Below are positions 1,349-63,755 of a stretch of DNA of 64,000 nt, in pieces. Source of the stretch: an uncultured Bacilli bacterium (GTDB lineage Bacteria; Bacillota_I; Bacilli_A; RF39; UBA660); the NCBI GenBank assembly GCA_910576795.1, contig CAJTIX010000002.1, positions 43,372 to 107,371 of the forward strand, given 5' to 3'. Position 1 is the first letter of the stretch. Every line of letters begins with the position of its first letter. The notes below the pieces were generated by a model. The model was not told the DNA's origin. It did no database searches and was given only the letters and a program-made list of their open reading frames with translations. The position numbers and the translations under genes were made by a program.

Positions 1349-1377
1349 CCATTGAATTTCAATGGTTTTCTTTTTTT
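1349..1377 (+). terminator. Rho-independent terminator after tRNA-Gln (phage-supplied copy)
   Basis: ccattg-aattt-caatgg hairpin followed by T-run; similar hairpin after attR at about 42300-42330. Confidence 0.5.
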
Positions 1378-2567
1378 AATTTATCTGTTGACCCCAAATT
1401 GACCCCCATTTTGATACTACTGATTTTATCTAAAGATGATGTGTAGTTGGATTCTAACAAGTGCGTATATGTTTTTAGCGTTTCATTTATATTAGCATGT
1501 CGTAATATTTTACTGATTACCTCGATAGGAATTCCAATTGAGAATAACCATGTTGCACATGAGTGCCTAAAATCGTGTAGTCTTAAGTGTTTGTTGATAT
1601 TAGCTATTTTAAAATACTTTTCTCTGCCATATTTCAAAGAGCCTTCGCTAATTGGCAGTGGTCCATTAAATAAATACCAATCATCACTATAATCAGTAAA
1701 CTGTTTCCAATATTCAATAAGTTTTTGAATTTTCTCATTTAAAGAGTCATCTAAGTCAATAGGGGCTTTAGATGATGCTGTTTTAGGTTCTTTTAGTATA
1801 TTATACTTAGACATTGTATGATTAACCATTAATTGCTTTTTTTGAGGATTATAGTCTTTAATTTTAAAAGCTCTTACTTCTCCCATTCTAGGACCTCTAC
1901 TAAATGATAAATCGAAGTATGTATTGAATTTTAAATTATCCTTACTTGCTTCTAGTAATCTTAAATATTCATCAAAATCTATTACTTGCCAAACTTTGCG
2001 TTGATTACTTAACTTGTTTTCTTTTGGTGTACCAAATTTGCCAACGCGTTTTGGTATATTTAATCTACATAGTCCTTCGTTAACGGCATAATCAAACATC
2101 TCACAAATAAGATTATGTGACCTATTTAACTGTTGCAAAGAATATGGTCTATCTTCATTTCCTTTTTTATATGTTTTTTTTATCATTTGTCTTTGCCAAT
2201 TTGAATAATATGTTGTATCGATTTTTGATAATTTTATATTGGGATTGTTTTCAACCTGTTTAGTAATATCTATATCACAAAAATAGCTTAACAAATTTTT
2301 TTTGTTTGCAAATGTATCAATATCACATTTGATTTCTATGAAGTTTAAATATCTATCTCTCAATTGTGATAATGTAATATCTATAGTATCAGGACTTTCC
2401 TTTTTTTCAATAACAAAGCTTTGTAATTTATCATAAGCTTCCTTTGGTCCCTTAAACCCCCTAATTGTTGGCCGTTTCTCGCTACCATCGATATTTTTGA
2501 TTCGAGGTTTGATATAATATGATTTCGCTATTTCATCATAATATACACCTCTATATTTTTTTGCCAT
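1359..2567 (-). CDS. int: Phage tyrosine integrase
   Basis: C-terminal LRHDFRHSCATWL...HANINETLKTYTHL (R..H..R..Y catalytic residues); ATG at 2567 with GAGGAG SD; next to tRNA/attL. Confidence 0.9.
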   Translation of the reverse strand: MAKKYRGVYYDEIAKSYYIKPRIKNIDGSEKRPTIRGFKGPKEAYDKLQSFVIEKKESPDTIDITLSQLRDRYLNFIEIKCDIDTFANKKNLLSYFCDIDITKQVENNPNIKLSKIDTTYYSNWQRQMIKKTYKKGNEDRPYSLQQLNRSHNLICEMFDYAVNEGLCRLNIPKRVGKFGTPKENKLSNQRKVWQVIDFDEYLRLLEASKDNLKFNTYFDLSFSRGPRMGEVRAFKIKDYNPQKKQLMVNHTMSKYNILKEPKTASSKAPIDLDDSLNEKIQKLIEYWKQFTDYSDDWYLFNGPLPISEGSLKYGREKYFKIANINKHLRLHDFRHSCATWLFSIGIPIEVISKILRHANINETLKTYTHLLESNYTSSLDKISSIKMGVNLGSTDKLKKENH

Positions 2568-2634
2568 TTTATCACTCCTCTTATTGCCTAAACTGTTTAT
2601 TTTTGGTATAATCAGAGTACACAAAAAAACTTCA

Positions 2635-20254: not shown

Positions 20255-20706
20255 AGCTAACTGATAAACAGAAAAAGAAAATAATAGCAGATTATATAAA
20301 TAATACTAACTTTAGTGAAACTGCTAGAATGAATCATGTTCATGCTTCTACAGTAAAAAGGTTAATAGATAGTGATTACGACAAAGATTTGCAAGAAAAG
20401 GCAGAACATAAAAAAGAAGAAAACACCAAAGATATTTTGGAATATCTAGATACAATTGGAAATCAACAAAGAGAAATAATTGATTTGTCATTAAAAGTTC
20501 TTGTTGAAAAATTGTCAAAACCAGATGCATTTACAAACATAAAGGACATTGCAACCGTTTATGGTGTTATCTATGATAAAGCAATTAAGTCTAAAGAATT
20601 GAAATTAAAACAAGAAGAATCACAATATAAAAACAATGCTTCTAAAGAGGTCTTAGATAAATTAGATACATTGTTAGAGGAACAAAAAAATGCCTATATG
20701 GACTAA
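20233..20706 (+). CDS. Terminase small subunit
   Basis: N-terminal HTH (NFSETARMNHVHASTVKRLI), size and position before the large subunit. Confidence 0.65.
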   Translation: MVNVSRVKLTDKQKKKIIADYINNTNFSETARMNHVHASTVKRLIDSDYDKDLQEKAEHKKEENTKDILEYLDTIGNQQREIIDLSLKVLVEKLSKPDAFTNIKDIATVYGVIYDKAIKSKELKLKQEESQYKNNASKEVLDKLDTLLEEQKNAYMD

Positions 20707-21976
20707 TAAACAAAAGGAATATGGAAGAAATGCAAATCATAGATGGAATTTTAAAGTTGGTGCTGTTCGTAGTGGAAAAACCTTTCAAGATAAAGAAGAT
20801 ATTATTCCTAGAAGAATAAGAGAACGAATCGGAAAAGAAGGTTTATGTGTAATAATAGGAGTTACAGAAGCTACAGTTGAAAGAAATGTTTTAAGACCGA
20901 TGCGAGATAAGTTTGGGAAAGAACTTGTTGGAACTATATCAAAAAATAAAGTTTGGCTATTTGGAGAAGAATGTTATGCATTAGGTGCAGAAAAAGTAAA
21001 TCAAGTGGCAAAAATTCAGGGTGCTAGTTTTAAATATGTTTATGGAGATGAAGTTGCAAAATGGAATAAAGAAGTATTTGATATGGTTAAATCAAGACTT
21101 GACCAAGATTATTCATTATTTGATGGTACTTGTAATCCAGAACAAGAAAACCATTGGTTAAAAGAATTTTTAGATAGTGATGCAGATATTTATCAGTTAC
21201 ATTATACGATAGATGATAATGATCATTTATCTGATACTTTCAAAGAGAATTTAAAAAAAGAATATTTTGGTACTGTAAAATATGACAGATACATTTTAGG
21301 ACTGTGGGTAAATGCAGAAGGTCTTATATATAAGAAGTTTGCTAATAATCCAAGCAAATATGCAATTAAATATGAAGCAGAAAAAAGAAATGGAATCTGG
21401 TATGATAATCTGCCAAAAGGAGATACAATTGTAGGTATTGACTATGGTGGTAATAAATCAGGACAAGCTTTTGTTGCAATTAGAATTAGCAATGATTATA
21501 CAAAAGTAATAGCATTGGCAAGTAGAAAATTTTCAAATGATTTGGATGATATTGATTCTAAAAAATTGGAAAATTTACAATATGAATTTATAGATTATGT
21601 TAGCAAGAAATTTCATTGCAATGTTGACTATGTTTATCCTGATAACGAAGAAACTGTGCATATAAGAAGCTTAAGAAATAGATGTAATGCAGAAGGATTA
21701 GAAACAATAGTAAGAGGTTGTAAAAAAGAACCTATAAATACAAGAATAGATTGTCAAAACACTATGTTAGGTTTTGACATTTTTGGTTATATAGAAGGCG
21801 AGTGTGTTAGTTTAGTGGATGCTTTAAAAAGTGCCTTGTGGGATGATACTAAATTAGAGGATGAAAGATTAGATAATTTTACTACAGATGTTGATACGTT
21901 GGATGCATACGAATATTCCTTTGAAAGATATATGAAAAGAATAAATGATGCAATAAAGAGAGGAGAATATACATGA
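20690..21976 (+). CDS. Terminase large subunit
   Basis: Walker A VGAVRSGKT, 428 aa, overlaps TerS. Confidence 0.8.
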   Translation: MPIWTNKQKEYGRNANHRWNFKVGAVRSGKTFQDKEDIIPRRIRERIGKEGLCVIIGVTEATVERNVLRPMRDKFGKELVGTISKNKVWLFGEECYALGAEKVNQVAKIQGASFKYVYGDEVAKWNKEVFDMVKSRLDQDYSLFDGTCNPEQENHWLKEFLDSDADIYQLHYTIDDNDHLSDTFKENLKKEYFGTVKYDRYILGLWVNAEGLIYKKFANNPSKYAIKYEAEKRNGIWYDNLPKGDTIVGIDYGGNKSGQAFVAIRISNDYTKVIALASRKFSNDLDDIDSKKLENLQYEFIDYVSKKFHCNVDYVYPDNEETVHIRSLRNRCNAEGLETIVRGCKKEPINTRIDCQNTMLGFDIFGYIEGECVSLVDALKSALWDDTKLEDERLDNFTTDVDTLDAYEYSFERYMKRINDAIKRGEYT

Positions 21977-23494: not shown

Positions 23495-23896
23495 ATGTTT
23501 GAAATGAACGGAATTAAATGGCAAGTAGTAGAAGTTGAACAAGAAAAACTGTGGAATGAACAAAGAGAAAGTTTCAAAGATGATGGGAACCACATTTTAG
23601 GTAAATGTATGCCTTTTGAAAAAAAAATACTCATAAGTCAAGAATTGTGTTATGAACAAAAAAGAAAAACACTTATTCATGAATTAACACATTGTTACAT
23701 AGCAAGCTATATAACTTTTAATGAAAAAGAATATACAGAGGATGATTTCTGTGATATCAATGCTAATAGTTTTGATATAATCCAAAAAATTGTAGATAAG
23801 ATTTATCCTATGACAGTAGAAATTGTTACAACAAATATTATTCTAGATGGTAAAAAGATTGCAGAAACAATAAAGGGACAAGGTAATGTTAAGTGA
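23495..23896 (+). CDS. HExxH motif protein (putative zinc metallopeptidase-like)
   Basis: IHELTHCY (HEXXH) motif; 133 aa. Confidence 0.4.
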   Translation: MFEMNGIKWQVVEVEQEKLWNEQRESFKDDGNHILGKCMPFEKKILISQELCYEQKRKTLIHELTHCYIASYITFNEKEYTEDDFCDINANSFDIIQKIVDKIYPMTVEIVTTNIILDGKKIAETIKGQGNVK

Positions 23897-25580
23897 AGAA
23901 TCTTTAGAAAGATTATCTGAAAGACTTGTTAATCGAATAGAAGAATTAAATCTATTTATGATTGAAAAATTAGGAGAACAAATAGTTGATATAGGAACTC
24001 TTACACCTAGTCAGTTGCGAGAAGTGTTTCAATCGATTAAATATGGCAATAATCTTGATGAAATTGTAAATAAAATTGCAGAAATAACAGATAAGAATGT
24101 GAATGATATTTATGAAATATTTGAGGAAGTAGCAAAGCAATGCCAGGAATATGCTAAACAGTTTTATAAATATAAAAACATTAAATTTATTCCTTTTGAA
24201 GAGAACCAAACGCTAAAACAGCAAGTCAAAACAATTGCAAAAGCAACAGTTGATGAATACATGAATATGAGTGAGACAATGGCTTATACATTCTATAATG
24301 ATTCAGGAATTAGGGAATTTAGTTCTTTATCCGAAACATATCAAAAAGTAACTGATAGAGCAATATTAAGTTTCTCACAAGGTCGTGAATCGTTTGATAT
24401 GATTATGAAACGAACTATGCGAGAATTAACTAGTCAAGGATTACGAACTGTTGACTATGCGAGTGGCTATTTAAGAAGAATGGATAGTTCTGTTCGAATG
24501 AATTTAATGGATGGTATTAGAAGGTTAAATAGAGAACTACAAACTCAATTCGGAAAAGAATTCGGTGCTGATGGTGTAGAAGTATCACATCATAAGAATG
24601 CAGCACCTGATCACATTAATACAGTGGATGGGCAACAATTTAGCATTAATGGAGAAGTTACAGTCAAAGGTATTAAGTATTTTAATTATGATACCGTAAA
24701 TGACAATCTAGAAAGGCATGTAGGAGAGCTTAATTGTTATCATTTTGTTTATTCAATTGTGCTTGGGGTATCTAAACCTTTATATTCTAAAGAAGACCTA
24801 GAAGCTGATAAAAAGGCTAATATAGAAGGTTTTGAGTTCGAAGGCAAACATTATACTATGTATGAGGGAACACAGCTACAAAGACAAATAGAAACGAAAA
24901 TACGGCAATATAAAGATAGACAAATAGGTGCTAAAGCAATTAAGGACACTGATGAGATATATCACTGTGAAGAAAAGATAAGACAACTTACACAAAAGTA
25001 TCATGAATTATCCGATACTAGTGGTTTACCTACTAAAATTGACCGATTAAGAGTTGAAGGATATAAACGTGTTTCGATTAAGAAAGATACAAATCCATAT
25101 AAAGATGTAACTCAAGAATGGCTAGATAAAGCAACTCCTAATAGCCATGAAGTAAAAGATAGAAGTTACTTTGAACACAATGGTGTTAAATATAAAGTTG
25201 ATGGTAAAAATGTAGTCCTTGATTATTCTAACAAAGAAAAAGAAGTTGCAGAATGGTTGGAAAATACATTTGGTGGAGAATTATATATGATTCCAAGAAT
25301 AAATAATCCTAGTGGAATTCAAACACCAGATTATATATTTAGAAACAACAAGTGGGACTTAAAAACAATTATTGGTAATGGTAAGCAAGTGTTATATCAT
25401 TCTGTGTATAAGAAAAAAGAACAAAGTGATAATTTTATTTTTGATGTATCTTCTTCAAAATTGAGTATGGATGAGGTTGTACAACAAATAGACAAACTAT
25501 ACAAAAGAAAGGATGTACCATTCATTAATGAAATCATTGTAAAAAAAGATAATGATTTTATAGTATTCAAAAGAAAATAA
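23886..25580 (+). CDS. MuF-like head morphogenesis / minor capsid protein with about 250-aa C-terminal extension
   Basis: Central region resembles SPP1 gp7/Mu F family; the C-terminal extension contains a PD...DxK-like segment (TPDYIFRNNKWDLK). Confidence 0.6.
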   Translation: MLSEESLERLSERLVNRIEELNLFMIEKLGEQIVDIGTLTPSQLREVFQSIKYGNNLDEIVNKIAEITDKNVNDIYEIFEEVAKQCQEYAKQFYKYKNIKFIPFEENQTLKQQVKTIAKATVDEYMNMSETMAYTFYNDSGIREFSSLSETYQKVTDRAILSFSQGRESFDMIMKRTMRELTSQGLRTVDYASGYLRRMDSSVRMNLMDGIRRLNRELQTQFGKEFGADGVEVSHHKNAAPDHINTVDGQQFSINGEVTVKGIKYFNYDTVNDNLERHVGELNCYHFVYSIVLGVSKPLYSKEDLEADKKANIEGFEFEGKHYTMYEGTQLQRQIETKIRQYKDRQIGAKAIKDTDEIYHCEEKIRQLTQKYHELSDTSGLPTKIDRLRVEGYKRVSIKKDTNPYKDVTQEWLDKATPNSHEVKDRSYFEHNGVKYKVDGKNVVLDYSNKEKEVAEWLENTFGGELYMIPRINNPSGIQTPDYIFRNNKWDLKTIIGNGKQVLYHSVYKKKEQSDNFIFDVSSSKLSMDEVVQQIDKLYKRKDVPFINEIIVKKDNDFIVFKRK

Positions 25581-33081: not shown

Positions 33082-33450
33082 ATGTTTGTAGATAAAGATA
33101 GCGTTATAATTGATAATATATCAATGGGAAAATATTTAGTAAAAGTACTATTTGGTTATCATAAGATTTGGTCAGAAGATTCTGGGAGAACATTAAGTTT
33201 TAAACATATCGGTACTTTAGGTGGTATATTCCCTAAATTAACATTGTTTTTCCGAAGTTTATCTAATGAAGAACTTAAACTATTAGCACCAATTTTGGAT
33301 AGAGAAAATCAAACAGTTACATATGACGATCCAGTAAAAAATAGAAGACCGATGACTACATATTCTGGCGATTGGGAAATTGAATATGAAAACATGGGTA
33401 GAGGGAAGCCTTTTACTTGTGCGTTTATTGCAACAGAAAAGAGGCGTTAA
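33082..33450 (+). CDS. Small tail component (distal-tail-like position)
   Basis: 122 aa after TMP. Confidence 0.4.
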   Translation: MFVDKDSVIIDNISMGKYLVKVLFGYHKIWSEDSGRTLSFKHIGTLGGIFPKLTLFFRSLSNEELKLLAPILDRENQTVTYDDPVKNRRPMTTYSGDWEIEYENMGRGKPFTCAFIATEKRR

Positions 33451-36400
33451 TGAAAGTACATTCAAATAATTTTAAAAGTGCCATAAATAAGCATGGACGT
33501 GAATTAGATGCTATTATTCAATATACAATTGATAATAATGACCGAATATTAACAGGAGATGATATATATTCTATCGCTCCTGTTTTTCATGCAGATATTT
33601 TAATGTCTGTAATGAAAGAACTCTCTATTGATAGTGTAATTCAAATTCCTAAAGGAACAATTGTTAGTCTAAAAATAGGCACTAAAGTAGGAACAAATTA
33701 TGAATATCTAGATTTTGGAAACTATATTGTTTATGATAATGAATATAATGCAGACACGAGATCATATAGTCATATTTGCTATGATAAAATGTTGTATTCA
33801 ATGAAAGATTATGAAAAACTAGATATAACATATCCTATATCAGTTCGAGATTATATATCTGCAATATGTAACAAAATAGGAATCAATTTTGCAAATCATA
33901 ATTCTAAATTTGCAAATTATAATAAGCTAATCCAAAAAGAACTATATCTAGATTTAGGATATACTTATCGTGATATTTTAGACGAATTAGCCCAAGTAAC
34001 CGCAAGTACAATATGTATAAATAAAAACGATGAATTAGAAATTCGTTATATTAATGAAACAAATGAAATTATAAATGAAGATTTTTTAAAAGATAAAAAT
34101 GTTACTATAAAAAGTAAATATGGACCTGTTAATTCAATTGTTTTATCTAGAAGTGCTGAAACAGATAATATTTATCTCCAAGACGAATCTAGTATATCTA
34201 ATAATGGTTTATGCGAGATTAAAATCAAAGACAATCAGATTATGAATTGGAATGATAGGGATGAGTATTTACCCGATATATACATTAAATTAAATGGATT
34301 AGAGTATTATACAAATGATTTTGATAGTCCTGGTATATGCTATTTTGATGTTTGTGATAAATATAAAATATCTATTGATGACATTGAATATAACTGCATC
34401 ATGTTTAATGACGAAATAAAAATAAATAGTGGCTTATATGAAACTATTTATACAAGTATACCAAATAAAAGTGAGACTGATTATACTAAGGCGGATAAAA
34501 CAGATAGAAGATTAAAACAAACATATTTAATTGTTGATAAACAGGGTCAAAGAATTGATAGTGTTGTAAGTGATGTGTCAGAACATGATAAAAAGATAAC
34601 GCAAATCTCTCAAACTGTAGACACTATCCAACAACAAATCTCTGGCGAATACGGAATGGACCGTGAAACAACAGGAACAAATCAAGTATTCATAGAAGAT
34701 GCTATGAAGTATTATCCGCTAGAAATAAAAATAAGTGGATATTCGGATTTAAGCAAGTTAATCTATCCAAGTGCGAATTTATTTCCGAGTGCTAATCTGT
34801 TTCCAGTTGCTTATAAAGAACCAGCTTTAAATACAGTTCAATCCAAGAGCAAATCTCGAGCAAATTCTAGTCAATCTAAAATTGTAATTGGTGATTCAAT
34901 AGTTGCAACTACTACAAAAGAGCCATCTACTCAAACGTCGGGTAGTGTAACAGTGACAGTAACAGTAAATAAATCTGTAGTGCCAGATCCTTTAATTGCC
35001 AATGGATGGTCATTGTCAAATGATAATACAGTTTTGAAGAAGATATTTAACGAAAATGCAACAGAAATTCTTCATTTAATAGATGCTAACAATAGTACAA
35101 AAGCAATTGATTATAAGCTTGTTATAGATAATATAATTCCTGCTTATATAACATTATGCGTTGATAGCCAAGATAGAGAGCATCCAACTGAAAATCTAAA
35201 GGAATATCCAATTACTATTGGAAAGCCATTAAGGTCTTTAGGAAAGGTTAAAGATGAACTTTCAATAGCTCTCGAAAATGGAGAATTACAGGCTCAAATA
35301 ACACGTTATTTAGCGTATACGGGTAGTCAGATTGTTAAATTAGACAAACCTATCATTGAAGCGATAATGTGTCCAGCAATTGAGTTATTAGAGCATACAA
35401 ACTATGTTTATATTAAAGAACAACCAAATTATCAGATATACATTAAGTATCTTGTGTATAGCAAGTTTAATGAATTCTATGCAACTAAAGTAGAACTAGA
35501 AACTACAAGAAAGCAAACAGAAGACAGCATTATAGATACAGTATCTAAAACTTATTCTACAAAAGAAGAAATGGCTTTAGAAAAGTCAGAACGCATTCAA
35601 ACTGCTACAGAGATTAGCCAAAGTGTTACTCAATTACAAAAAGAAAACGAAAGCCTATCAACAAAAATGAAACAGACTGCTACAAGTTTTGAATTATTAG
35701 CAAGCGATAATAAAACAAGTGCAGGACTTACAATTAAATTGAAAAATAGTGATGGAACAGAATTGGATAGCAAAACAGCCAATATTTCAATGAGTGGACT
35801 AGTAAAATTTACAGATTTAAGCAGTTCTGGAAGTACTACAATAAATGGAGCAAATATTACGACTGGTTCAATAAGCGCTGATAGAGTAACTGGTGGGACT
35901 CTAAAAGGAACTACAATAGAAGGTAATACAATAAAAGGTGGAACTATTAGTGGTACTTCTATTAATACAGATAAAGACTTAACTGTAGGTAATAATATTT
36001 ATGTTGGTCAAAATCAAAACTCATCAGTTATAGATAAAAAAGCTATCTACTTTAGTGAGAAAACAAAATTAGAAAGAACAAAAGTGGGTAATAGTGAAAT
36101 TATTTCTTTATTAGGAAGTGACATTGTAACTGTTGGGACAGAAAAAGCACAAATACAGTTTGGACAACTTGGATTTAATGCATACGCTCCAAATTCTGCA
36201 GGAACAAGAGCTCAATCATTTTATACAACTGCAACTAATTTTGGAATTCAAAATGGTAATTTTGATTGTTATATAATAGGTGGAAATGGTATAAGTATGT
36301 CACATTCTCCATCAATTTCTTCTGATAAACGTTTGAAAAAGAAGATTAGAGATATTGATGTATCATGGATAGACAATCTAAAAATAAAAGAATTTGAATA

Positions 36401-36635
36401 TAAAAATACACCAGATAAAAGGCAAATTGGTTTAATTGCACAAGATTATGTTGATACGGAGTACTCTAAATACTTTTTAAATCAACGAGAAGACGGATAT
36501 TATGGAATTAATTATGGAAACATAACAAACGCATTAATTCAATATTGTCAAGAATTGAAACATTCAATTCAAGAACAACAAGAACAAATCAATGCATTAA
36601 AACAAGAAATAGAGGTGCTAAAAAATGAAAGATAA
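33450..36635 (+). CDS. Tail fibre / tail-associated protein with C-terminal intramolecular chaperone (peptidase S74) domain
   Basis: 1061 aa; C-terminus SDKRLKKKI...IGLIAQDYVDT...ALKQEIEVLKN matches the endosialidase-chaperone autoproteolytic domain; Gly/Thr-rich repeats upstream. Confidence 0.7.
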   Translation: MKVHSNNFKSAINKHGRELDAIIQYTIDNNDRILTGDDIYSIAPVFHADILMSVMKELSIDSVIQIPKGTIVSLKIGTKVGTNYEYLDFGNYIVYDNEYNADTRSYSHICYDKMLYSMKDYEKLDITYPISVRDYISAICNKIGINFANHNSKFANYNKLIQKELYLDLGYTYRDILDELAQVTASTICINKNDELEIRYINETNEIINEDFLKDKNVTIKSKYGPVNSIVLSRSAETDNIYLQDESSISNNGLCEIKIKDNQIMNWNDRDEYLPDIYIKLNGLEYYTNDFDSPGICYFDVCDKYKISIDDIEYNCIMFNDEIKINSGLYETIYTSIPNKSETDYTKADKTDRRLKQTYLIVDKQGQRIDSVVSDVSEHDKKITQISQTVDTIQQQISGEYGMDRETTGTNQVFIEDAMKYYPLEIKISGYSDLSKLIYPSANLFPSANLFPVAYKEPALNTVQSKSKSRANSSQSKIVIGDSIVATTTKEPSTQTSGSVTVTVTVNKSVVPDPLIANGWSLSNDNTVLKKIFNENATEILHLIDANNSTKAIDYKLVIDNIIPAYITLCVDSQDREHPTENLKEYPITIGKPLRSLGKVKDELSIALENGELQAQITRYLAYTGSQIVKLDKPIIEAIMCPAIELLEHTNYVYIKEQPNYQIYIKYLVYSKFNEFYATKVELETTRKQTEDSIIDTVSKTYSTKEEMALEKSERIQTATEISQSVTQLQKENESLSTKMKQTATSFELLASDNKTSAGLTIKLKNSDGTELDSKTANISMSGLVKFTDLSSSGSTTINGANITTGSISADRVTGGTLKGTTIEGNTIKGGTISGTSINTDKDLTVGNNIYVGQNQNSSVIDKKAIYFSEKTKLERTKVGNSEIISLLGSDIVTVGTEKAQIQFGQLGFNAYAPNSAGTRAQSFYTTATNFGIQNGNFDCYIIGGNGISMSHSPSISSDKRLKKKIRDIDVSWIDNLKIKEFEYKNTPDKRQIGLIAQDYVDTEYSKYFLNQREDGYYGINYGNITNALIQYCQELKHSIQEQQEQINALKQEIEVLKNER

Positions 36636-53171: not shown

Positions 53172-53309
53172 ATGGATAATTTAAGTGGGTTTCAAAATGG
53201 AAGTAGGTTTTCACAATATTTAAATGAAAAAATTTTTGATTTTGATGATATTATTGAGAGTATGTATCATCAACGTAATGATAAGGTTTTTCATTATGAA
53301 GGAAGTTAA
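53172..53309 (+). CDS. Small ORF (45 aa) overlapping DUF3800 gene start
   Basis: ATG with GAGGTGG SD; below track cutoff. Confidence 0.3.
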   Translation: MDNLSGFQNGSRFSQYLNEKIFDFDDIIESMYHQRNDKVFHYEGS

Positions 53310-53973
53310 TTTATATATTGATGAATCAGGTAATTTAGGATCTGGAATGGGAAGATATTTTTTAATTTGTGCTTTGGATATAGAATCTAGCGTAAAATCG
53401 ACTATTATAAAAAGAGCTGGTAGAACGATATGCCGATTCAAACAGAAAAAACATATTTTGAAGACAGAAGAGTTAAAAGGATGGAATTTAAATAGGGAAG
53501 ATAGAATAGATTTAATCGAACGGATTTTGTTTAAGGGTGTAAGGGTGAGATATATTGTATTAGATTTAAAGCAAACTACGATGTTATTGTCTAAACCTGA
53601 TGATAAAAATGCTTGTTTTAATTATTTGATTCAGTTAATTGTGAAACAAATTATGAAGGAATATCCACATGTCGATAAAATAAATTTATATTTAGATAAT
53701 CGATCTGTTAAAATTGGAAATCGTTTATCTTTAAAGCCTTATTTATATAATAAATTAATATTGGAACAATTAGAAACTCATTCCAATGTAAAACGAGTTG
53801 AGTTTAATATTACTTATTTAGAATCAGAAAGTTGTTATTTGATACAGTGGGCTGATATTATTGCAAATTCAATATATAAAGCATATAATGGTAATAATTA
53901 TGAATTTTATAATAAGATAAAACCTTATATTATTTTTGAAAGTAAATTTCCAACTAGAAATTTTGGAAAGTAG
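53296..53973 (+). CDS. DUF3800-family protein
   Basis: N-terminal VNLYIDESGNLG signature. Confidence 0.55.
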   Translation: MKEVNLYIDESGNLGSGMGRYFLICALDIESSVKSTIIKRAGRTICRFKQKKHILKTEELKGWNLNREDRIDLIERILFKGVRVRYIVLDLKQTTMLLSKPDDKNACFNYLIQLIVKQIMKEYPHVDKINLYLDNRSVKIGNRLSLKPYLYNKLILEQLETHSNVKRVEFNITYLESESCYLIQWADIIANSIYKAYNGNNYEFYNKIKPYIIFESKFPTRNFGK

Positions 53974-54369
53974 CTAACATGATATTGACGAGTTGATTTA
54001 AAAGTGGTAATATAGGTATACCAAAGAAGAACTGGCATATAAGCCTTATATGATTTATCCAATCGATGAATATAAGAGTTATTGATTAACTCAGTCATAT
54101 AAGCCCTGCCAGTCTTTTTTGTTGACTAAAAAGTCTATAATATCAAGTACTATGAACTTGTATAAAGTATATAAAAACTCGCATTTCCTAAATAGGTGTG
54201 CGAGTTTAAACCTCAATGGAGCCTTAACTATACACGTTTGCGAAATTAAGGACAAAAGTTGATTAAATCAACTGATACTTAAATTATAGCAGATATTAGT
54301 TTTTTTTCAAGTACAACTCAAATAAATTTTAACTTTCTATGATATAATACTTTAGAAAGTGGGTGAAGT

Positions 54370-55800
54370 ATGAGCCAAATTATTTGTGGAGATTTAGAAT
54401 TTGATAATATAAAGTACAAATTTGATTTTAGGGATAATATATTAGTATTATTACCAGAAGAATTACAGCAATATGCTAAATGGCGTTTTGAACATTTAGG
54501 AAAAAAAGAAAGATTTGATTATGTTAATGTTGAAGGTGTTACTAATAATGGATGGTATATTTGTTTTGTACATATTAAATTTTTCCATTTAGGTAGAGGT
54601 GCGTTGCAAGCTTTTGTACCAGGGTATGCAGTATGTAAAGCAAATGGAATAACTCCTTTGCCCACGTGTGAGCAAATTGAGAAGATTAGATTTTATGGAG
54701 ATTGTCTAGACAAATTCTACTATCCAAAAAGGGTTGTAGAAACAAGTGACTTCGTACATTCCAAAGATATAAAGTTTGAAATAAAAAAGCAAAAAATGAA
54801 AACAGATGATTTTATGGTTAATAAAGATAAATATTCATTTGGGGTTTATTGGACTGCTCCTTATAGTTCAAACATTAATGTTGTTCTAGATGTATCTTCA
54901 TATTTAGAAATAAAATTTGATAATTGCAAAAATATTACAGAAATTATTGATTATTATTTAAATGTCAAAAAATTTTTCTCATTTATTAATAATAGAAAAT
55001 ATATAAAATTTGAAAGGATTATAGCATTTAGGAATGATAATATTAGTTATGGTTTTGAAAAACAAGATAATATTCGTTCTATTGAAATAGAATTTGAATT
55101 GTACTTTGTTGATCCAGATGAGAAATTTGATTTGAATACATCTTTAAATACGGTTAGATTAGAAGATTTAGATAATAAATTTTGTAGAATATATAAGGAA
55201 GTGACTAAGGAAAAGTTTTTCACTCAATATTATCCTTTAAGCACAAGTGATAATCATTATATTGATAATGATAAATATGTTAGTGTATCAAGTGCATTCG
55301 AATCTGAGTTTGACAAATTACATCCTAAGTTCAAATCTACCATTAGTTCCGAATATAATGAAATAAAACAGATAATATTAAAATCTATTTCTAATAAGAA
55401 ATATAGAACAAAAGAAAAATTAAAAAATGACAAAGTAAACAATAAATCTTTAAAAACAACCATAAATGAGTGTGATTATTTTTCTAAAATAATCAAAAAT
55501 ATTGATGGAACATTGCATGAAAAAATTGTTTATTCATATAAGAAATACAATAATATTATAGAATCTAAAAGGAATAAATTATTAAAGAACTATGAGTTAG
55601 ATAAGGCGAAGGCAGGAGTGTTAGCCAATAAATTTGTTAAAAGAAGAAATGATATTTCTCATGGGAATGGCACAGGACAATTTGATTCATTGGAAATAAT
55701 CGCTTATGAGTTATTACGGATATGTATTTATTGTATCACACTAGAAAGATGTAAATTTTCTGAAGAAAAAATAAAAGAATTTATAGAAAAAATATTTTAG
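54370..55800 (+). CDS. Hypothetical 476-aa protein with C-terminal HEPN-like Rx4H motif (ApeA/Abi-like architecture?)
   Basis: FVKRRNDISHGNG near C-terminus fits the HEPN R-x4-6-H motif; rest unrecognised; first gene of overlapping 3-gene operon. Confidence 0.45.
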   Translation: MSQIICGDLEFDNIKYKFDFRDNILVLLPEELQQYAKWRFEHLGKKERFDYVNVEGVTNNGWYICFVHIKFFHLGRGALQAFVPGYAVCKANGITPLPTCEQIEKIRFYGDCLDKFYYPKRVVETSDFVHSKDIKFEIKKQKMKTDDFMVNKDKYSFGVYWTAPYSSNINVVLDVSSYLEIKFDNCKNITEIIDYYLNVKKFFSFINNRKYIKFERIIAFRNDNISYGFEKQDNIRSIEIEFELYFVDPDEKFDLNTSLNTVRLEDLDNKFCRIYKEVTKEKFFTQYYPLSTSDNHYIDNDKYVSVSSAFESEFDKLHPKFKSTISSEYNEIKQIILKSISNKKYRTKEKLKNDKVNNKSLKTTINECDYFSKIIKNIDGTLHEKIVYSYKKYNNIIESKRNKLLKNYELDKAKAGVLANKFVKRRNDISHGNGTGQFDSLEIIAYELLRICIYCITLERCKFSEEKIKEFIEKIF

Positions 55801-55828
55801 ATATTTTTAATTTAGGTGGTGAAGAATA

Positions 55829-56845
55829 ATGGCTGTATCTAATAGAGACGATTTTACACAATTAGTTAAATCTAAATTGGCAAAGAGGGTAGCTTATATT
55901 TGCTCTAACCCTAGTTGTCAGAAATTAACTATTGGACCAAATAGTTCTGATAGTATTAATAATATTGGGGTGGCAGCACATATATGTGCTGCTTCTCCTG
56001 GAGGACCTAGATATAATTCAATAATGACAGAAAAGGAAAGAAGAAGTTATGAAAATGGTATTTGGCTATGTCAAAGCTGTGCACGAATTATTGATATTGA
56101 TGCAGAAAAGTATACTCCACAGTTGTTAAAACTTTGGAAAGAAGAAACAGAAAATACAATATATTTGAATTTTAATCAAAGAGTTAATTTAAAAAAGAAA
56201 AACAAATTGGAGTATATTTTTGAAACATTAAGGGATTGTGACAATTGGGAAAGGTTGCAAGATGATTATATAGATGGTTATTATTTTAAGGAAAATCCAT
56301 CTTATATGATGGAAATTGTTGATAGTGATAATCATAATACAGAGTTTTATAGTTATTTAATGACTAATGAACATACCTCATTTTCTATTTTATATTTAAA
56401 ATATAATGGAACTTGTATTTATTCACAGCAAATTGTTAATTTAGATTCTGGAAGATTAACAACAGTTGTACCGTTATCTAGTTATATTGATTATAAAGAT
56501 GTACCTTATAAGTACAAATATTTTATTAAAAATAGTAAAGAAATGATTTTAAGAGATTTTTTACTCAATTTTGATAATGATTATGATAAATCTGAAGAAT
56601 TATATGCTTTAAAAAAATTAAGTGAAGTAGTAATTGAATATGAAACGGAAAAAGAAAGAGAATATTTTGAACAAAAATATTTAAACAATATAAATCTCGA
56701 AGATATAAAAAAATATAATAATGGTTATGAATATGCTGGTAACTCACAAAATGAAATTGAGTATAATAAAATTGCTATAGGTTTAAGTAAATACATAAAA
56801 GAAAAATATAAATTATACAAGGAGGAACTAGAAAGTGAAAAGTAA
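55829..56845 (+). CDS. HNH-like nuclease domain protein (338 aa)
   Basis: N-terminal CSNPSCQ ... AHICAASPGGPRYN ... NGIWLCQSCARIID fits the HNH C..C/H..N/C..C pattern. Confidence 0.5.
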   Translation: MAVSNRDDFTQLVKSKLAKRVAYICSNPSCQKLTIGPNSSDSINNIGVAAHICAASPGGPRYNSIMTEKERRSYENGIWLCQSCARIIDIDAEKYTPQLLKLWKEETENTIYLNFNQRVNLKKKNKLEYIFETLRDCDNWERLQDDYIDGYYFKENPSYMMEIVDSDNHNTEFYSYLMTNEHTSFSILYLKYNGTCIYSQQIVNLDSGRLTTVVPLSSYIDYKDVPYKYKYFIKNSKEMILRDFLLNFDNDYDKSEELYALKKLSEVVIEYETEKEREYFEQKYLNNINLEDIKKYNNGYEYAGNSQNEIEYNKIAIGLSKYIKEKYKLYKEELESEK

Positions 56846-57389
56846 TTACTTATTAGTACACGGAAGTTTTGGAAGCCCATTTTCTAATTGGATTCCATAT
56901 TTAAGAAAAGAAATAGAAAATAAAAGTCTAGAGGTTTATACTCCAGATTTTCCGACAGGAGTAGGTTACCAAAATTATGAAAACTGGTCTAAACTTTTAA
57001 AAACTTATGTAGAAGCAAATATCATAAATGAAAATACTATTATATTTGCTCATTCTATTGCACCTATTTTCATCTGCAAATTTCTAGTTGAGAATAAACT
57101 AAAGGTAAAAAGATTAGTTTTTGTTTGTGGATTTAACAATTATCTTGGAATCAATGAAGATTATGACACAGTGAATGAAAGTATGTATTTTGATAATTTG
57201 GTTGGTGTTAGAAAATATTGTGATGATATCGTTTGTTTCTATTCGGATAATGATCCATATGTGAAGTATGAAGCTGAAAAAGAATTTGCTGATACTATAA
57301 CTGAAAATCAAATTATGGTGTCTGGAGGAGGACATCTAAATTCTGAAAGTGGTTATACTGAATTTAATGACTTACTAAAATACATATAA
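56835..57389 (+). CDS. Small alpha/beta serine hydrolase (YdeN/RBBP9-like)
   Basis: LLVHGSFGSPFSNW N-terminus and FAHSIAP nucleophile-elbow-like segment; 11-bp overlap with upstream gene. Confidence 0.5.
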   Translation: MKSNYLLVHGSFGSPFSNWIPYLRKEIENKSLEVYTPDFPTGVGYQNYENWSKLLKTYVEANIINENTIIFAHSIAPIFICKFLVENKLKVKRLVFVCGFNNYLGINEDYDTVNESMYFDNLVGVRKYCDDIVCFYSDNDPYVKYEAEKEFADTITENQIMVSGGGHLNSESGYTEFNDLLKYI

Positions 57390-57421
57390 AACAAAGGCAA
57401 TGCCCAAACTGGCATTGCCTT

Positions 57422-57886
57422 TTAACAACTTTTTTCACGATATTTAACAGTTGACTTTCCACATAGCCAATCCATGGAAATATTGTACTTTTGGCATATT
57501 TGATAGGCAAAGGCAGTTAATATCAATGTTTTACCTGTTTCATATGCAGATATAGTAGAGAAGGTAGTATTTAGCTCATTTGCTAATGTACGAAGTGTCA
57601 AACTATTTTCTTCTCTAATTTCTTTCAAACGTTTACCAATTTCTGTTTTATTCAAATTTTTAACTTCAACTATAGAATTATTAATTTTTTGATTAGATAA
57701 ACCTAGTGAATAATCCATACTAACATTATAGATATTACATACAGTGTTCAGGTGCTTTAAAGGAATAATTTTTGTCCCATTTTCCCAAACGGAATAGGTT
57801 TGTTGGCTAATACCAATTTTTTCAGCAATATCCTTTTGATATAAGTTATTTAACTCTCTTAAGTCTAATAGTCTTTTCGTATTCAT
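57422..57886 (-). CDS. XRE-family regulator with two HTH domains
   Basis: Two HTH_XRE repeats; ATG 57886 with AGGTGA SD. Confidence 0.6.
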   Translation of the reverse strand: MNTKRLLDLRELNNLYQKDIAEKIGISQQTYSVWENGTKIIPLKHLNTVCNIYNVSMDYSLGLSNQKINNSIVEVKNLNKTEIGKRLKEIREENSLTLRTLANELNTTFSTISAYETGKTLILTAFAYQICQKYNISMDWLCGKSTVKYREKSC

Positions 57887-58150
57887 AAGCGATTCACCTA
57901 TAACAATTCTCCCATTAAAAGTAAAAATGTTAACCATCATACTAACAAATACGAACAAAACATGATATAATGAATTGGCAGATAGACAATGGCATAGAAT
58001 CATTTTTGAATTATTTATAATAGGACTAATATTAAAATTCAAAATAGGGGAGGTATGATAAATAAGTATAAAGAGATTTACAAATTTTGGTTTAAGAATA
58101 ATAAAAAAAGAACTGCGAATTCTTTTTAACAATGGAGTAATACCCAATAA

Positions 58151-58390
58151 TTATTTTTTACGGACAATTACTTCAATATTATGTGCTTTGCACATTTTTA
58201 GGAATGTAGCAAGACTCACATTGATTGTTCCATATTCATAACCTTCAATTGTCTTTCTACTACGGTGTATAGATTCTGCAAAGTCATTTTGGGTTAGTTC
58301 AGACCATTCTCTAACTAACTTAATGATTTCTTTTGGTTTATAATCATTGGCTTTAAATTGCATATCTCTACACCTCCGACTTTTCAACAT
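58151..58390 (-). CDS. XRE-family HTH regulator (start probably internal Met)
   Basis: ELTQNDFAESIHRSRKTIEGYE HTH. Confidence 0.5.
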   Translation of the reverse strand: MLKSRRCRDMQFKANDYKPKEIIKLVREWSELTQNDFAESIHRSRKTIEGYEYGTINVSLATFLKMCKAHNIEVIVRKK

Positions 58391-58523
58391 TTCAAGTCCA
58401 TATTAATAATAACTGAAAAAGTACATTCTTTGTTCAAAATTCCTGTTAATAATAGGAATTATATCTGCGAAAATTAAAATGTAATGGAGACAATATAGTA
58501 ACTGTTACATAAAGGAGAAGAGA

Positions 58524-58787
58524 ATGCTAACAGAATTACAGAATAAAAGAAAAAAACATAATTATTCATTACAAGCCATGGCAAATAAATTACATATTAG
58601 TAAAACATATTACTGGCAACTCGAACAAGATAATAGGAGATTGCCTTATGATCTTGCAGTAAAAATGGCTACAGTTTTACATTGCACAACAGATGAATTA
58701 TTTGCTAACTACTATATGGAAAATTTAGAATTGAAAGGGGAGAGGTGCTATGTTAATGAAGTTAAGAAAAATAAGAAAGCGAAATGA
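58524..58787 (+). CDS. XRE-family HTH regulator
   Basis: HTH_XRE-like 87 aa. Confidence 0.55.
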   Translation: MLTELQNKRKKHNYSLQAMANKLHISKTYYWQLEQDNRRLPYDLAVKMATVLHCTTDELFANYYMENLELKGERCYVNEVKKNKKAK

Positions 58788-58950
58788 TATTACAATTTAT
58801 GATATGGCTAGTTATCTTAATATTACGCCATCTTTTTATAGTCAAATTGAAAATGGGAAAAGAAGACTATTTTATGATACTGCGATTCGCATTGCTTGCT
58901 TTTTTGGAGTAATGCCAAGTGAATTATTTGAAAGTAGGGGAGAAAATTAG
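58750..58950 (+). CDS. XRE-family HTH regulator
   Basis: ITIYDMASYLNITPSFYSQIENGKR HTH. Confidence 0.55.
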   Translation: MLMKLRKIRKRNDITIYDMASYLNITPSFYSQIENGKRRLFYDTAIRIACFFGVMPSELFESRGEN

Positions 58951-58952
58951 AA

Positions 58953-59297
58953 ATGTTTTGTCTGACATTGTATGGGGATTTAAAACCTACTTTAACAAGG
59001 GAGATGTTAAAGTTAGAAAGAGAGGAAATTCTGTATGACACGATTATTAACTTAATTGTGTTCCATGGTATTCTTTATATTCAATATTATGGTGGGTTTC
59101 CTGTTCGTATTTTTAGAATGCGAATCAAACAAATTTTAAAAGAATACAAAATTCCAAGTAGATTACATAATGAAATTACACAAGATATTTTTAAGATTTT
59201 GAAAAATCAATATGGTGTTCAATATCGTAAGTTAGATATTCATATGTACAGTCAACAAGTATTAGAAGAAATGAAAAATATTTCGTTTAAAATTTAA
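58953..59297 (+). CDS. Hypothetical protein
   Basis: 114-aa ORF. Confidence 0.4.
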   Translation: MFCLTLYGDLKPTLTREMLKLEREEILYDTIINLIVFHGILYIQYYGGFPVRIFRMRIKQILKEYKIPSRLHNEITQDIFKILKNQYGVQYRKLDIHMYSQQVLEEMKNISFKI

Positions 59298-59384
59298 GAA
59301 TAAAATGAGGAATCAAAAAAGAAATCCTGTTTGCATTATAAAGGATTTCTTTTAATTCACGATTAATATTTTAGTGAAATAAAT

Positions 59385-60695: not shown

Positions 60696-60770
60696 AATTA
60701 AGGTTTAGCCTTTCTAAAGAGGGGATTTATATGGTGGGAGTATAAATCCGTTGCTTGCTTATAGATAATG

Positions 60771-61121
60771 TTAGACATATACTAACTCTTTCAATATGGT
60801 TTCTTCTGCCATATTTTTATAATTATTTGAGAGTTTTACCCATTCCATTTGATTCGTTTCCTTATTTTTTTCAGATAGTAGTTTATCAGATTTTTGATAA
60901 TGTTCCATTAGAACGTTCAGTCTATCTTCTGCCTCTTTACTTACTGAAAAAAGATGACTCATCAATTTATCTTGGATCAGCAAAGCCGTGTAAAGGCCTT
61001 GCTTATGCTCTTTTAAATAATCCAATCGTAAGTAACCATACTTATTTAGATTTCCTTTTTGTTGATTCACTTTTAAATTGGGTAATAAATAATCACCAAC
61101 TTTTGTATAATTTAATTTCAT
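60771..61121 (-). CDS. Hypothetical protein (mobilization accessory?)
   Basis: 116-aa ORF between relaxase and recombinase. Confidence 0.4.
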   Translation of the reverse strand: MKLNYTKVGDYLLPNLKVNQQKGNLNKYGYLRLDYLKEHKQGLYTALLIQDKLMSHLFSVSKEAEDRLNVLMEHYQKSDKLLSEKNKETNQMEWVKLSNNYKNMAEETILKELVYV

Positions 61122-61123
61122 TT

Positions 61124-63228
<2,105 letters not shown>

Positions 63229-63292
63229 TCATTTTTGGATTTTTGAAAGGCACCAAATTGGTGTCACATAACAAGAACACCAATTGTATCAA

Positions 63293-63565
63293 TTAATGCC
63301 TTGCTATGTATTCTGATAATTCAGCGAGTGGGATTTTCTTTTCTAAATTCCCTATGTAAAAATAATTTTGGTCATTGAAGAATAAGTACAACTTATTATC
63401 AATAATCACTTTGTGTGGTTCCACGTATGCGATATTTGTGTGTTCCACGATTCGTAAGCAACCCTCTGTAATTTGACAACGTTTGCTATTAAATTTGCAA
63501 GACCATTTGATTTTGGCTTTGAGTTCATCACTCATATTGATTTTCTTTTTTACAATATTAATCAT
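63293..63565 (-). CDS. Hypothetical protein
   Basis: 90-aa ORF. Confidence 0.4.
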   Translation of the reverse strand: MINIVKKKINMSDELKAKIKWSCKFNSKRCQITEGCLRIVEHTNIAYVEPHKVIIDNKLYLFFNDQNYFYIGNLEKKIPLAELSEYIARH

Positions 63566-63681
63566 AATACATCACACCTTTCTTGACTAGGTCTCTCACA
63601 AGACTTTTAGTCGACAAAAAAATCAATCTTTTCAGATTGACTTAATCAATTAACGTCACTTGGTGCGACGGATTTACCTTT

Positions 63682-63755
63682 TGGAGCAGATGATGAGAAT
63701 CGAACTCACGCAGTCAGCTTGGAAGGCTGAGGTTCTACCATTAAACTACATCTGC
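63682..63755 (-). tRNA. tRNA-Gly (anticodon UCC)
   Basis: Manual cloverleaf on minus strand: GCAGATG/CATCTGC acceptor, anticodon arm TCAGC-CTTCCAA-GCTGA, T-loop TTCGATT, CCA. Confidence 0.8.

Follow-up and report, generated by a model that had tools for sequence, protein, structure and literature searches.

ApeA is reportedly a single-gene defence, as set out by Gao et al. in 2020, and Anantharaman et al. are said to have treated an 'ApeA/BMEI1217' family in 2013. As a single-protein defence it cleaves tRNA anticodon loops or phage RNA, and a 467-aa 'minimal' ApeA homologue protects against DNA phages (bioRxiv 10.64898/2026.01.26.701840, 10.64898/2026.03.20.713152). The domain ApeA-NTD1 comprises ~300 aa, mostly beta strands (PMC3710099). 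Cap5, the HNH-SAVED effector of CBASS (PDB: 7rwk, 7rwm, 8fm1), is built from an N-terminal nuclease and a C-terminal regulatory domain. PDC systems, with PDC-S50 among them, are predictions made by 'guilt by embedding' (bioRxiv 10.1101/2024.01.29.577857). Small elements of the Tn4451/Tn4453 kind (TnpX, TnpV, Mob) consist of a large serine recombinase, TnpV, a relaxase and a cargo slot that holds catP, and the serine hydrolases of the YdeN/RBBP9 family (PF06821) have a GxSxG nucleophile elbow.

Here we compared these systems with a three-gene operon in a 64,000-nucleotide stretch of DNA (the window) from an uncultured low-GC gut Bacilli genome, the host of the mobilizable element on which the operon lies. 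A first-pass annotation had proposed one integrated defence system unlike any described. We found independent modules instead of one new three-part system, and the operon is probably a mosaic cargo in which two autonomous nuclease defence modules and a captured housekeeping-type esterase travel on a mobilizable element.

A tight operon on a mobilizable element

The three ORFs lie on the same strand, with a 28-nt spacer between genes 1 and 2 and an 11-nt overlap between genes 2 and 3.

54370-55800, plus strand: gene 1, ORF of 476 aa
55829-56845, plus strand: gene 2, ORF of 338 aa
56835-57389, plus strand: gene 3, ORF of 184 aa with a GTG start
54340-54348, plus strand: candidate extended -10 promoter element TGaTATAAT, ~20 nt 5' of the gene 1 start
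57393-57422, no strand assigned: G+C-rich hairpin terminator (12-bp stem with 6 G-C pairs, then a minus-strand T-run)

Shine-Dalgarno-like sequences precede all three genes (GGGTGA, GGTGGTGA and AAGGAGGA), and the hairpin, which is shared with a convergent XRE gene, is the single terminator of the operon. Read straight from the letters, TGaTATAAT may be the promoter element of gene 1; it is missing from the list of the consensus promoter scan because its -35 is poor. Relative to the nearest divergent operon, dN/dS was 0.13 for gene 1, 0.13 for gene 2 and 0.065 for gene 3. All three are under purifying selection and are therefore real genes, not chance ORFs, and they are co-transcribed, as the first reading of a tight three-gene operon had it.

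The carrier is an integrative mobilizable element, recovered independently as Logan contig L002, whose 9,498 bp correspond to window positions 54130-63627 at 99.97% identity.

54130-63627, no strand assigned: integrative mobilizable element of ~9.5 kb (L002)
59385-60695, minus strand: relaxase (PF03432 Relaxase)
60771-61121, minus strand: TnpV-like protein (PF14198 TnpV)
61353-62888, minus strand: large serine recombinase (PF07508 Recombinase, E = 1.3e-20; PF00239)
63682-63755, minus strand: tRNA-Gly(TCC) (ARAGORN; Rfam RF00005, 69.8 bits), ~55 bp past the right end of the element

An element with relaxase and serine recombinase had thus been recognised correctly, but the DUF3800 gene (53224-53973) that had been counted as part of it lies outside, because L002 spans 54130-63627 only. 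Related elements also adjoin a tRNA-Gly gene, which likely marks an integration hot spot. In its small size, large serine recombinase, TnpV, relaxase and cargo slot the element resembles Tn4451/Tn4453, whereas its relaxase is of the PF03432 type rather than the Mob_Pre type of TnpZ, four XRE-type regulators are present, tRNA-Gly is adjacent, and nuclease cargo replaces catP. Plasmid and phage sequences yielded no megablast match to the region, and the Rfam search of the operon region returned no RNA besides the flanking tRNA.

Gene 1, a candidate ApeA-type HEPN protein

The AF2 model of gene 1 (pLDDT 85, pTM 0.80) and its HEPN motif delimit two parts.

Gene 1, aa 1-246: beta-rich part
Gene 1, aa ~264-476: helical HEPN part with R426-x4-H431

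The motif, R426-N-D-I-S-H431, is contained in FVKRRNDISHGNG at aa 422-434, and R425, R426, N427, H431 and G432 do not vary across 35 homologues (RRNxxxHG). Gene 1 itself remained under the cut-off of the Pfam model HEPN_Apea (PF18739; E = 1.9e-4, 22.3 bits, cut-off 24.4) and did not match ApeA_NTD1 (PF18862) in the Pfam search. Within its family of 35, seven members matched HEPN_Apea (E<=0.01) and five matched ApeA_NTD1 (best E = 6e-8). Remote full-length relatives, whose cluster names are all 'hypothetical', exceeded the thresholds, with 25.4 bits (P0284) and 26.0 bits (P0291) for HEPN_Apea and 36.7 bits (P0279) for ApeA_NTD1, where the cut-off is 25.5. The PADLOC ApeA model matched none of gene 1, three homologues and ten remote relatives, and profile and fold searches of the PDB with gene 1 returned generic helical bundles only and no ApeA structure. 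Membership in ApeA is thus a matter of transitive profile evidence, by which gene 1 appears to be a divergent ApeA-type HEPN protein; the initial proposal of a HEPN domain of the ApeA kind agrees with the invariant RRNxxxHG and with the Pfam matches of family members and remote relatives.

Like ApeA, gene 1 is one polypeptide with a large N-terminal region and a C-terminal HEPN R-x4-H, and its modelled N-terminal half is beta-rich and aromatic-rich, in line with ApeA-NTD1. Its 476 aa come close to the 467 aa of the 'minimal' ApeA. ApeA itself is further characterised by a ring-shaped oligomer and a ligand pocket. In contrast, it is ~100 aa shorter than E. coli ApeA, the N-terminal domain of which is described as mainly helical, and it differs from ApeA in the sub-threshold Pfam score and the missing PADLOC match. 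In distribution, it also resembles ApeA in standing alone on mobile elements without conserved partners. Members of the clade come exclusively from uncultured gut Bacilli, Erysipelotrichaceae and 'Tenericutes' MAGs. Homologues without genes 2 and 3 occur in at least six lineages, with unrelated neighbours and on other mobile elements: some adjoin a LeuRS-like synthetase on Mob_Pre elements, one sits in a conjugative element, with a MobL relaxase on one side and a coupling protein on the other, and others lie directly 3' of a serine recombinase. Each gene 1 context found was a mobile element or lay beside a recombinase. A homologue with 77% identity had no gene 2 within 418 bp downstream, and plasmids yielded no tblastn match to gene 1.

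Gene 2, a predicted HNH nuclease

Gene 2 likewise falls into two parts.

Gene 2, aa ~1-115: Cap5-type HNH
Gene 2, aa ~116-338: C-terminal domain without a recognised fold, common to PDC-S50 and phrog_29016

Across 39 homologues, residues C25, C30, H51, N76, C81, C84, D89 and D91 never change. A profile of these homologues matched PDB entries 7rwm_A (2e-9) and 9om4_A (3e-10) over residues ~12-113, with further matches to 8ysq_A, 7rwk_A and 8fm1_A, and the N-terminus matched the PADLOC models for the CBASS 'Effector Endonuclease' (HNH effector). The catalytic His of AHI and the Asn align with those of Cap5, and the layout of an N-terminal nuclease followed by a putative regulatory domain is the same. 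Unlike in Cap5, the C-terminus of gene 2 contains no SAVED sensor domain and the operon no CD-NTase; around gene 2 lie genes 1 and 3 and XRE regulators. Residues 116-332, in turn, matched positions 164-383 of the 387 in the PDC-S50 model PDLC05032 (E = 2e-32). The first 163 positions of this model stayed unmatched, and gene 2 has its Cap5-type HNH there, so that it shares the C-terminal ~220 residues with PDC-S50/phrog_29016 but not the full-length model. Judged by these profiles, gene 2 would be the HNH nuclease of a candidate defence family, and the HNH domain noted at first reading is well founded in the invariant residues and the Cap5/HNH structures.

Homologues of gene 2, like PDC-S50, are embedded in defence islands, among RM, GmrSD, AbiL-like, Mrr and Avs4-like genes. 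Homologues without gene 1 were found in at least six lineages, mostly beside Avs4-like STAND genes or in conjugative elements. In four of these lineages they lie directly upstream of SMEK_N-STAND Avs4-like proteins, to whose genes they are joined by a 4-bp overlap; others belong to a conjugative element or follow a YaaC-like gene. Gene 1 was present at one of 80 metagenome loci carrying the gene 2 HNH domain. Two explanations of this neighbourhood were rejected. The C-terminal domain as a homotypic adaptor was discarded on hhalign probabilities below 1% against both the N-terminus of the Avs4-like neighbour and gene 1, and gene 2 as the missing effector of a STAND protein with a non-enzymatic SMEK_N adaptor was discarded in view of the description of SMEK as an Mrr-like nuclease.

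Gene 3, a putative YdeN/RBBP9-type serine hydrolase

Gene 3 matched Pfam Ser_hydrolase (PF06821) over residues 5-181 of its 184 (E = 1.2e-16, 61.5 bits, cut-off 22). The putative triad consists of S74 (AHSIA), an aspartate within SDND (S137-D140) and H167 (GGGHL), and we infer that the catalytic Asp is D138 or D140. The full-length match, well over the cut-off, and the Ser, Asp and His motifs bear out the annotation as a small alpha/beta serine hydrolase. Two features set it apart from YdeN/RBBP9 proteins: the nucleophile elbow reads AHSIA instead of GxSxG, and this copy lies on a mobile element, whereas its close relatives are core-chromosome genes.

A copy 84% identical to gene 3 belongs to the core priA-fmt-rlmN-PP2C-PASTA kinase (prkC)-rsgA-rpe operon of related Bacilli, and another ends an unrelated CHAT-like/AP-endonuclease operon; the copies in both operons are 84-87% identical. 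With 2,348 matches versus 38 clusters, the family outnumbers the gene 1 family ~60-fold, and neither PADLOC nor PHROGs gave a match for gene 3. With dN/dS at 0.04-0.07 and dS at 0.8-1.5, the ~90% protein identity across layouts reflects constraint on a slowly evolving protein; recent co-transfer is ruled out by the same dS. Gene 3 is probably a passenger that is not required for defence, and it may have a modulatory role, since it closes three different operons that contain gene 1.

Distribution of the three genes and alternative readings

A contiguous trio was found in no element other than that of the window itself (L001, L002). A sister lineage also has genes 1-3, but there a deaminase gene, an SDR gene and a third gene of 114 aa separate gene 2 from gene 3; exactly these three are absent from the window, where the junction leads from one start codon to another. 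The remaining lineages have a single gene, or gene 1 together with gene 3. Gene 3 directly follows a 49%-identical gene 1 in L039 and L040, and a histidine phosphatase takes the position of gene 3 in L038.

Genes 1 and 2 recur as a pair in just one further lineage, a common one (P0040, indexed in 507 blocks), with 70% protein identity for gene 1, 86% for gene 2 and the exact 28-bp spacing. This kept spacing, together with the tight joining of gene 2 homologues, which nearly always adjoin or overlap a large defence protein, leaves room for functional coupling: genes 1 and 2 would be a two-gene system of a HEPN RNase and an HNH DNase, with gene 3 optional, in which one protein senses and activates the other or RNA and DNA are degraded in parallel. 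Independent fusions of HEPN and HNH DNase domains have indeed been noted (PMC3710099). We nevertheless regard a coupled pair as unlikely. It was seen in just two of at least nine gene 1 lineages and two of at least eight gene 2 lineages, both proteins appear to be complete effectors and each is found alone, and their sequences are unrelated. Within the same operon pair, moreover, dS is 1.41 for gene 1 and 0.60 for gene 2, a more than two-fold gap that hints at separate histories.

The chance is slimmer still that the nucleases serve the element, whether as a module for its addiction or stabilisation or to attack competing plasmids and conjugative elements, and have no anti-phage role. The exclusively mobile or recombinase-adjacent contexts of gene 1 would fit this reading, as would gene 1 and gene 2 homologues inside conjugative transfer regions and a scan of viral contigs that found no gene 1 homologue. 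Against it, an antitoxin-like partner such as MNT is absent, phages are the targets of those relatives that have been characterised (ApeA and Cap5-type HNH effectors), and gene 2 homologues populate classical defence islands. One integrated three-gene system in which the serine hydrolase is required, as originally proposed, is very improbable: the 11-bp overlap may couple translation and gene 3 comes last in three different gene 1-containing layouts, but the gene also serves core and unrelated operons at 84-87% identity, its far larger family is matched by neither PADLOC nor PHROGs, a histidine phosphatase can stand in its place, and it is missing beside most gene 1 and gene 2 homologues, a distribution that, with next to no co-localisation of the three genes elsewhere, largely refutes such a system.

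Discussion

The comparison favours a mosaic of independent modules. The claim that the combination corresponds to no described system did not hold for its parts: ApeA is a characterised defence, and gene 2 joins a Cap5-type HNH at its N-terminus to the C-terminal domain of PDC-S50. Other parts of the first-pass annotation fared better: the HEPN and HNH motifs proved conserved in 35 and 39 homologues, and both the relatives and the contexts of genes 1 and 2 are of the defence type (ApeA, Cap5, defence islands). HMM and PADLOC searches recovered Ser_hydrolase, the Cap5-type HNH and the PDC-S50 C-terminal domain, but left gene 1 below the HEPN_Apea cut-off and without a PADLOC match.

The biochemical activities of all three gene products and their anti-phage role are what we infer from this comparison. 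To judge by homology, gene 1 would most likely work like ApeA. Its beta-rich N-terminal half and the insertions in the HEPN domain would detect an infection cue, a HEPN dimer would make up the composite R-x4-H active site, and the activated RNase would cut tRNA anticodon loops or phage RNA, by which phage propagation would be stopped. Gene 2 would most likely be a DNA-cutting HNH effector restrained by its own C-terminal domain, which would replace the SAVED sensor of Cap5.

A more speculative and doubtful view is that gene 2-type proteins are portable 'second-effector' modules for different single-protein immune sensors. Their partners would be the ApeA-like HEPN protein here, SMEK/Mrr-STAND Avs4-like proteins elsewhere and, once, a YaaC-like protein; the C-terminal domain of gene 2 would read the activation state of the partner, and genes 1 and 2 would constitute a new two-gene RNase and DNase system.

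The proposed three-gene system would lead to nothing new. If the operon is a mosaic cargo, gene 1 would represent a divergent clade of 'minimal' ApeA-type RNases, overlooked by current defence finders, from uncultured gut Bacilli, and the carrier would exemplify very small mobilizable transposons in which stacked defence genes replace antibiotic-resistance cargo. The operon would also be a clean example of cassette-like exchange at start codons inside one operon. The sole part with potential novelty is the HNH/PDC-S50-domain protein, which is recurrently paired tightly with different single-protein sensors.

Operon and carrier element

The operon comprises the following features of the window.

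54370..55800, +, gene 1, ORF of 476 aa
55829..56845, +, gene 2, ORF of 338 aa
56835..57389, +, gene 3, ORF of 184 aa, GTG start
57393-57422, strong hairpin between the gene 3 stop codon and the convergent XRE gene

Genes 1 and 2 are separated by 28 nt and genes 2 and 3 overlap by 11 nt, in agreement with the three-ORF operon of the first-pass annotation, and a purine-rich ribosome-binding site precedes every start codon. Compared with the sister operon, a second lineage carrying the gene 1-gene 2 pair, dN/dS was 0.13, 0.13 and 0.065 for genes 1, 2 and 3. Their length in DNA of 26% G+C, together with homologues under purifying selection, indicates that these are not chance ORFs.

In another sample, a contig of 9,498 bp reproduces window positions 54130-63627 at 99.97% identity, which marks the approximate extent of the carrier element. 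Besides the operon, this unit holds four genes of XRE type, a large serine recombinase, TnpV and a relaxase of the PF03432 family. The operon was correctly placed on a relaxase/serine-recombinase element, but the flanking DUF3800 gene lies outside this unit. Its product matches phrog_9243 (E 1.7e-25) and the PADLOC candidate PDC-M04A (E 4.8e-7), so another gene that is phage-related or a candidate for defence sits right beside the insertion site.

53224..53973, +, DUF3800 gene
63682..63755, -, tRNA-Gly(TCC), about 55 bp past the right end of the element

In contigs L014, L003 and L008, related elements with a serine recombinase likewise adjoin tRNA-Gly genes, which suggests a common integration hot spot. 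Positions 54128-54222 share homology with the terminus of related elements that is nearest the recombinase. This stretch ends in TGGAGC, the tRNA-Gly 3' end in L014, and may be an att site or a tandem-insertion relic. The element ends (54114-54311; 63603-63623) bear the imperfect inverted repeats TTTTTTGTTGACTAAAAAGTC and GACTTTTAGTCGACAAAAAAA, and a near-consensus minus-strand promoter (54310->54283) faces outwards at the left end; on a circularised element it would be directed at the recombinase genes. The host contig derives from an uncultured low-GC gut bacterium. Window positions 1-40000 are prophage-like: they encode a large terminase, an integrase of the tyrosine type, a C5 DNA methylase and a tail fibre bearing Peptidase_S74, and their MuF-like minor capsid protein 2 carries a fused CdiA_C toxin domain.

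1359..2624, -; 20690..21976, +; 23886..25580, +; 33417..36635, +: example genes of the prophage-like region

Gene 1 is a divergent ApeA-like HEPN protein

The proposed R-x4-6-H HEPN motif was borne out: FVKRRNDISHGNG occupies residues 422-434, and R425, R426, N427, H431 and G432 do not vary across 35 aligned homologues; nor do a FESEF motif and numerous aromatic positions of the N-terminal half. As to the suggested likeness to ApeA, gene 1 itself matched Pfam HEPN_Apea below the cut-off (E 1.9e-4, 22.3 bits against 24.4; residues 322-466) and had no match in PADLOC. When the 35 family members were scanned individually, HEPN_Apea was matched by seven, HEPN_MAE_28990 by six and ApeA_NTD1 by five (best E 6e-8). 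Close relatives were few (38 clusters at 48-81% identity in a word-indexed search), nearly all unnamed metagenomic proteins, and the sources of relatives were Bacilli, Erysipelotrichaceae, 'Candidatus Onthousia' and 'Tenericutes' MAGs. When 1.84 billion representatives were searched with a profile, 639 proteins came up at E<=1e-3, mostly of 440-490 aa and aligned end to end; among ten sampled remote relatives, one exceeded the Pfam cut-off for ApeA_NTD1, two that for HEPN_Apea, and none matched the PADLOC ApeA model.

In the AlphaFold2 model (pLDDT 85, pTM 0.80), residues 1-246 form a beta-rich half and residues 264-476 a helical one, consistent with the original description of ApeA-NTD1 as about 300 residues of mostly beta strands with conserved aromatics, fused to an Apea HEPN domain (PMC3710099). 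Sequence and fold searches of gene 1 against the PDB returned nothing informative. Based on the profile, motif and model evidence, we assign gene 1 to the ApeA_NTD1+HEPN_Apea superfamily as a divergent member, without placing it as an orthologue of the E. coli ApeA that has been characterised. ApeA defends as a single protein: it assembles into ring-shaped oligomers, has a pocket distant from the active site that binds a small ligand, and cleaves the anticodon loops of tRNA (bioRxiv 10.64898/2026.01.26.701840); during RNA-phage infection its target is phage RNA, and protection against DNA phages is also given by a 'minimal' homologue of 467 aa (bioRxiv 10.64898/2026.03.20.713152). By analogy, the N-terminal region of gene 1 would act as sensor, after which a HEPN dimer would cut tRNA or phage RNA.

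Gene 2 joins an HNH domain to a PDC-S50 domain, and gene 3 is a widespread hydrolase

A Pfam scan of gene 2 gave no match. With PADLOC, residues 116-332 matched positions 164-383 of the 387 in the PDC-S50 model (E 2e-32), and residues ~5-134 matched the HNH models PDC-M68A, CBASS 'Effector Endonuclease', SAVED_HNH and the SduA N-terminus. The PDC systems are 145 untested candidates from 'guilt by embedding' (bioRxiv 10.1101/2024.01.29.577857). A profile built from 39 full-length relatives retrieved Cap5 structures and an 'HNH endonuclease' chain from the PDB through the N-terminal ~110 residues only, and C25, C30, H51, N76, C81, C84, D89 and D91 are invariant in the 39 homologues, confirming the N-terminal HNH-type signature noted earlier. 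The HNH domain alone is very widespread (2,049 matches) and joined to many different C-termini; both halves have prophage relatives in PHROGs. Gene 2 would be an HNH DNase held under the control of its C-domain.

Gene 3 is, as first annotated, a small serine hydrolase, matching Ser_hydrolase over its full length (PF06821, E 1.2e-16) with Ser, Asp and His motifs present. The family is large (2,348 matches; more than 120 clusters at at least 80% identity). An 84%-identical copy belongs to priA-fmt-(151 aa)-hydrolase-rlmN-PP2C-PASTA kinase-rsgA-rpe, an operon conserved in 'Bacilli bacterium' MAGs, and an 87%-identical one ends an unrelated operon whose other genes encode a CHAT-like protein, AP endonuclease 2 and a protein of 143 aa. 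Against such copies dS is high (0.8-1.5) and dN/dS low (0.04-0.07), so the high protein identity reflects strong constraint rather than recent joint transfer.

The three genes are distributed separately

We read the gene neighbourhoods of homologues and searched 150 fetched loci with the three proteins by tblastn.

L003-L007, L012-L015, L041 (e.g. L012, 7007..8512): sister operon
L008-L011, L034 (gene at 9696..12107 in L008): LeuRS-like synthetase with gene 1 homologue, cargo of a Mob_Pre/serine-recombinase element found in two different chromosomal contexts
L024-L031, L043, L044: gene 2 homologue (59-62% identity) with SMEK_N(Mrr-like)-STAND gene
L042, 339..1460 and 1486..2493: YaaC-like protein (PF14175) upstream of a gene 2 homologue (68-70% identity), 25 bp apart

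The sister operon, from one common lineage, runs gene 1, 28 bp, gene 2, cytidine deaminase, short-chain dehydrogenase, 114-aa gene, gene 3, with 70%, 86% and 90% identity to genes 1, 2 and 3 of the window. Its deaminase is a 150-aa cytidine/dCMP-type protein (MafB19-deam/dCMP_cyt_deam_1) with a weak PADLOC dCTPase match. DNA alignment showed that exactly these three middle genes are missing from the window, the junction running from the start codon of the deaminase to that of gene 3, a clean loss or gain of three genes.

The preserved 28-bp pair could speak for genes 1 and 2 being coupled as one system, a reading that we regard as unlikely: each also occurs without the other. Gene 2 is absent from the 418 bp downstream of a 77%-identity gene 1 homologue, and one lineage (gene 1 identity 49%, in a beta-lactamase-like/gene 1 context) has gene 1 and gene 3 without gene 2. 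There the hydrolase lies downstream in L039 and L040, a histidine phosphatase takes its place in L038 (9501..10043), and L040 (8001..9857) is decayed, with gene 1 broken into pieces of 345 and 113 aa and gene 3 reduced to 119 aa. Without genes 2 and 3, gene 1 was found within a conjugative element, immediately downstream of a serine recombinase, adjoining a Bro-N gene, and, as a 71%-identical homologue, travelling with an 803-aa class I aminoacyl-tRNA synthetase (LeuRS-like). The neighbourhood of a putative tRNA-targeting RNase and a mobile tRNA synthetase may not be coincidence.

Mobile carriage recurs for gene 2, which, without gene 1, follows the YaaC-like gene on a Mob_Pre element and also lies within a conjugative element. 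An addiction or anti-plasmid role serving the element would suit such settings and appears quite improbable; in four lineages gene 2, again without gene 1, lies directly upstream of SMEK_N-STAND proteins of 1,571-1,572 aa (4-bp overlap in one) that match PADLOC Avs4 (E 8.5e-31), in islands with RM, GmrSD, AbiL-like and Mrr genes. Because this pair stays constant while upstream contexts differ, it forms a conserved two-gene unit. SMEK is described as an Mrr-like nuclease, so the Avs4-like proteins already own an effector domain.

A full three-gene defence or conflict system, as first proposed from the tight operon, is very hard to credit: in the loci examined, the contiguous trio is confined to the element of the window itself, recovered in MAG GCA_949959195.1 and in one Logan contig, and the co-localisation test fails. 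From these layouts it follows that genes 1, 2 and 3 have separate distributions. The operon is a mosaic put together by cassette-like exchange, probably two autonomous nuclease defences stacked as cargo with a passenger esterase, where we infer all activities of genes 1-3. The first-pass observation stands and its interpretation holds in part: the genes are new members of known or candidate families, and the data do not support a three-gene system. Most worth following is the HNH/PDC-S50-domain protein, which repeatedly occurs in tight pairs with different single-protein immune sensors.
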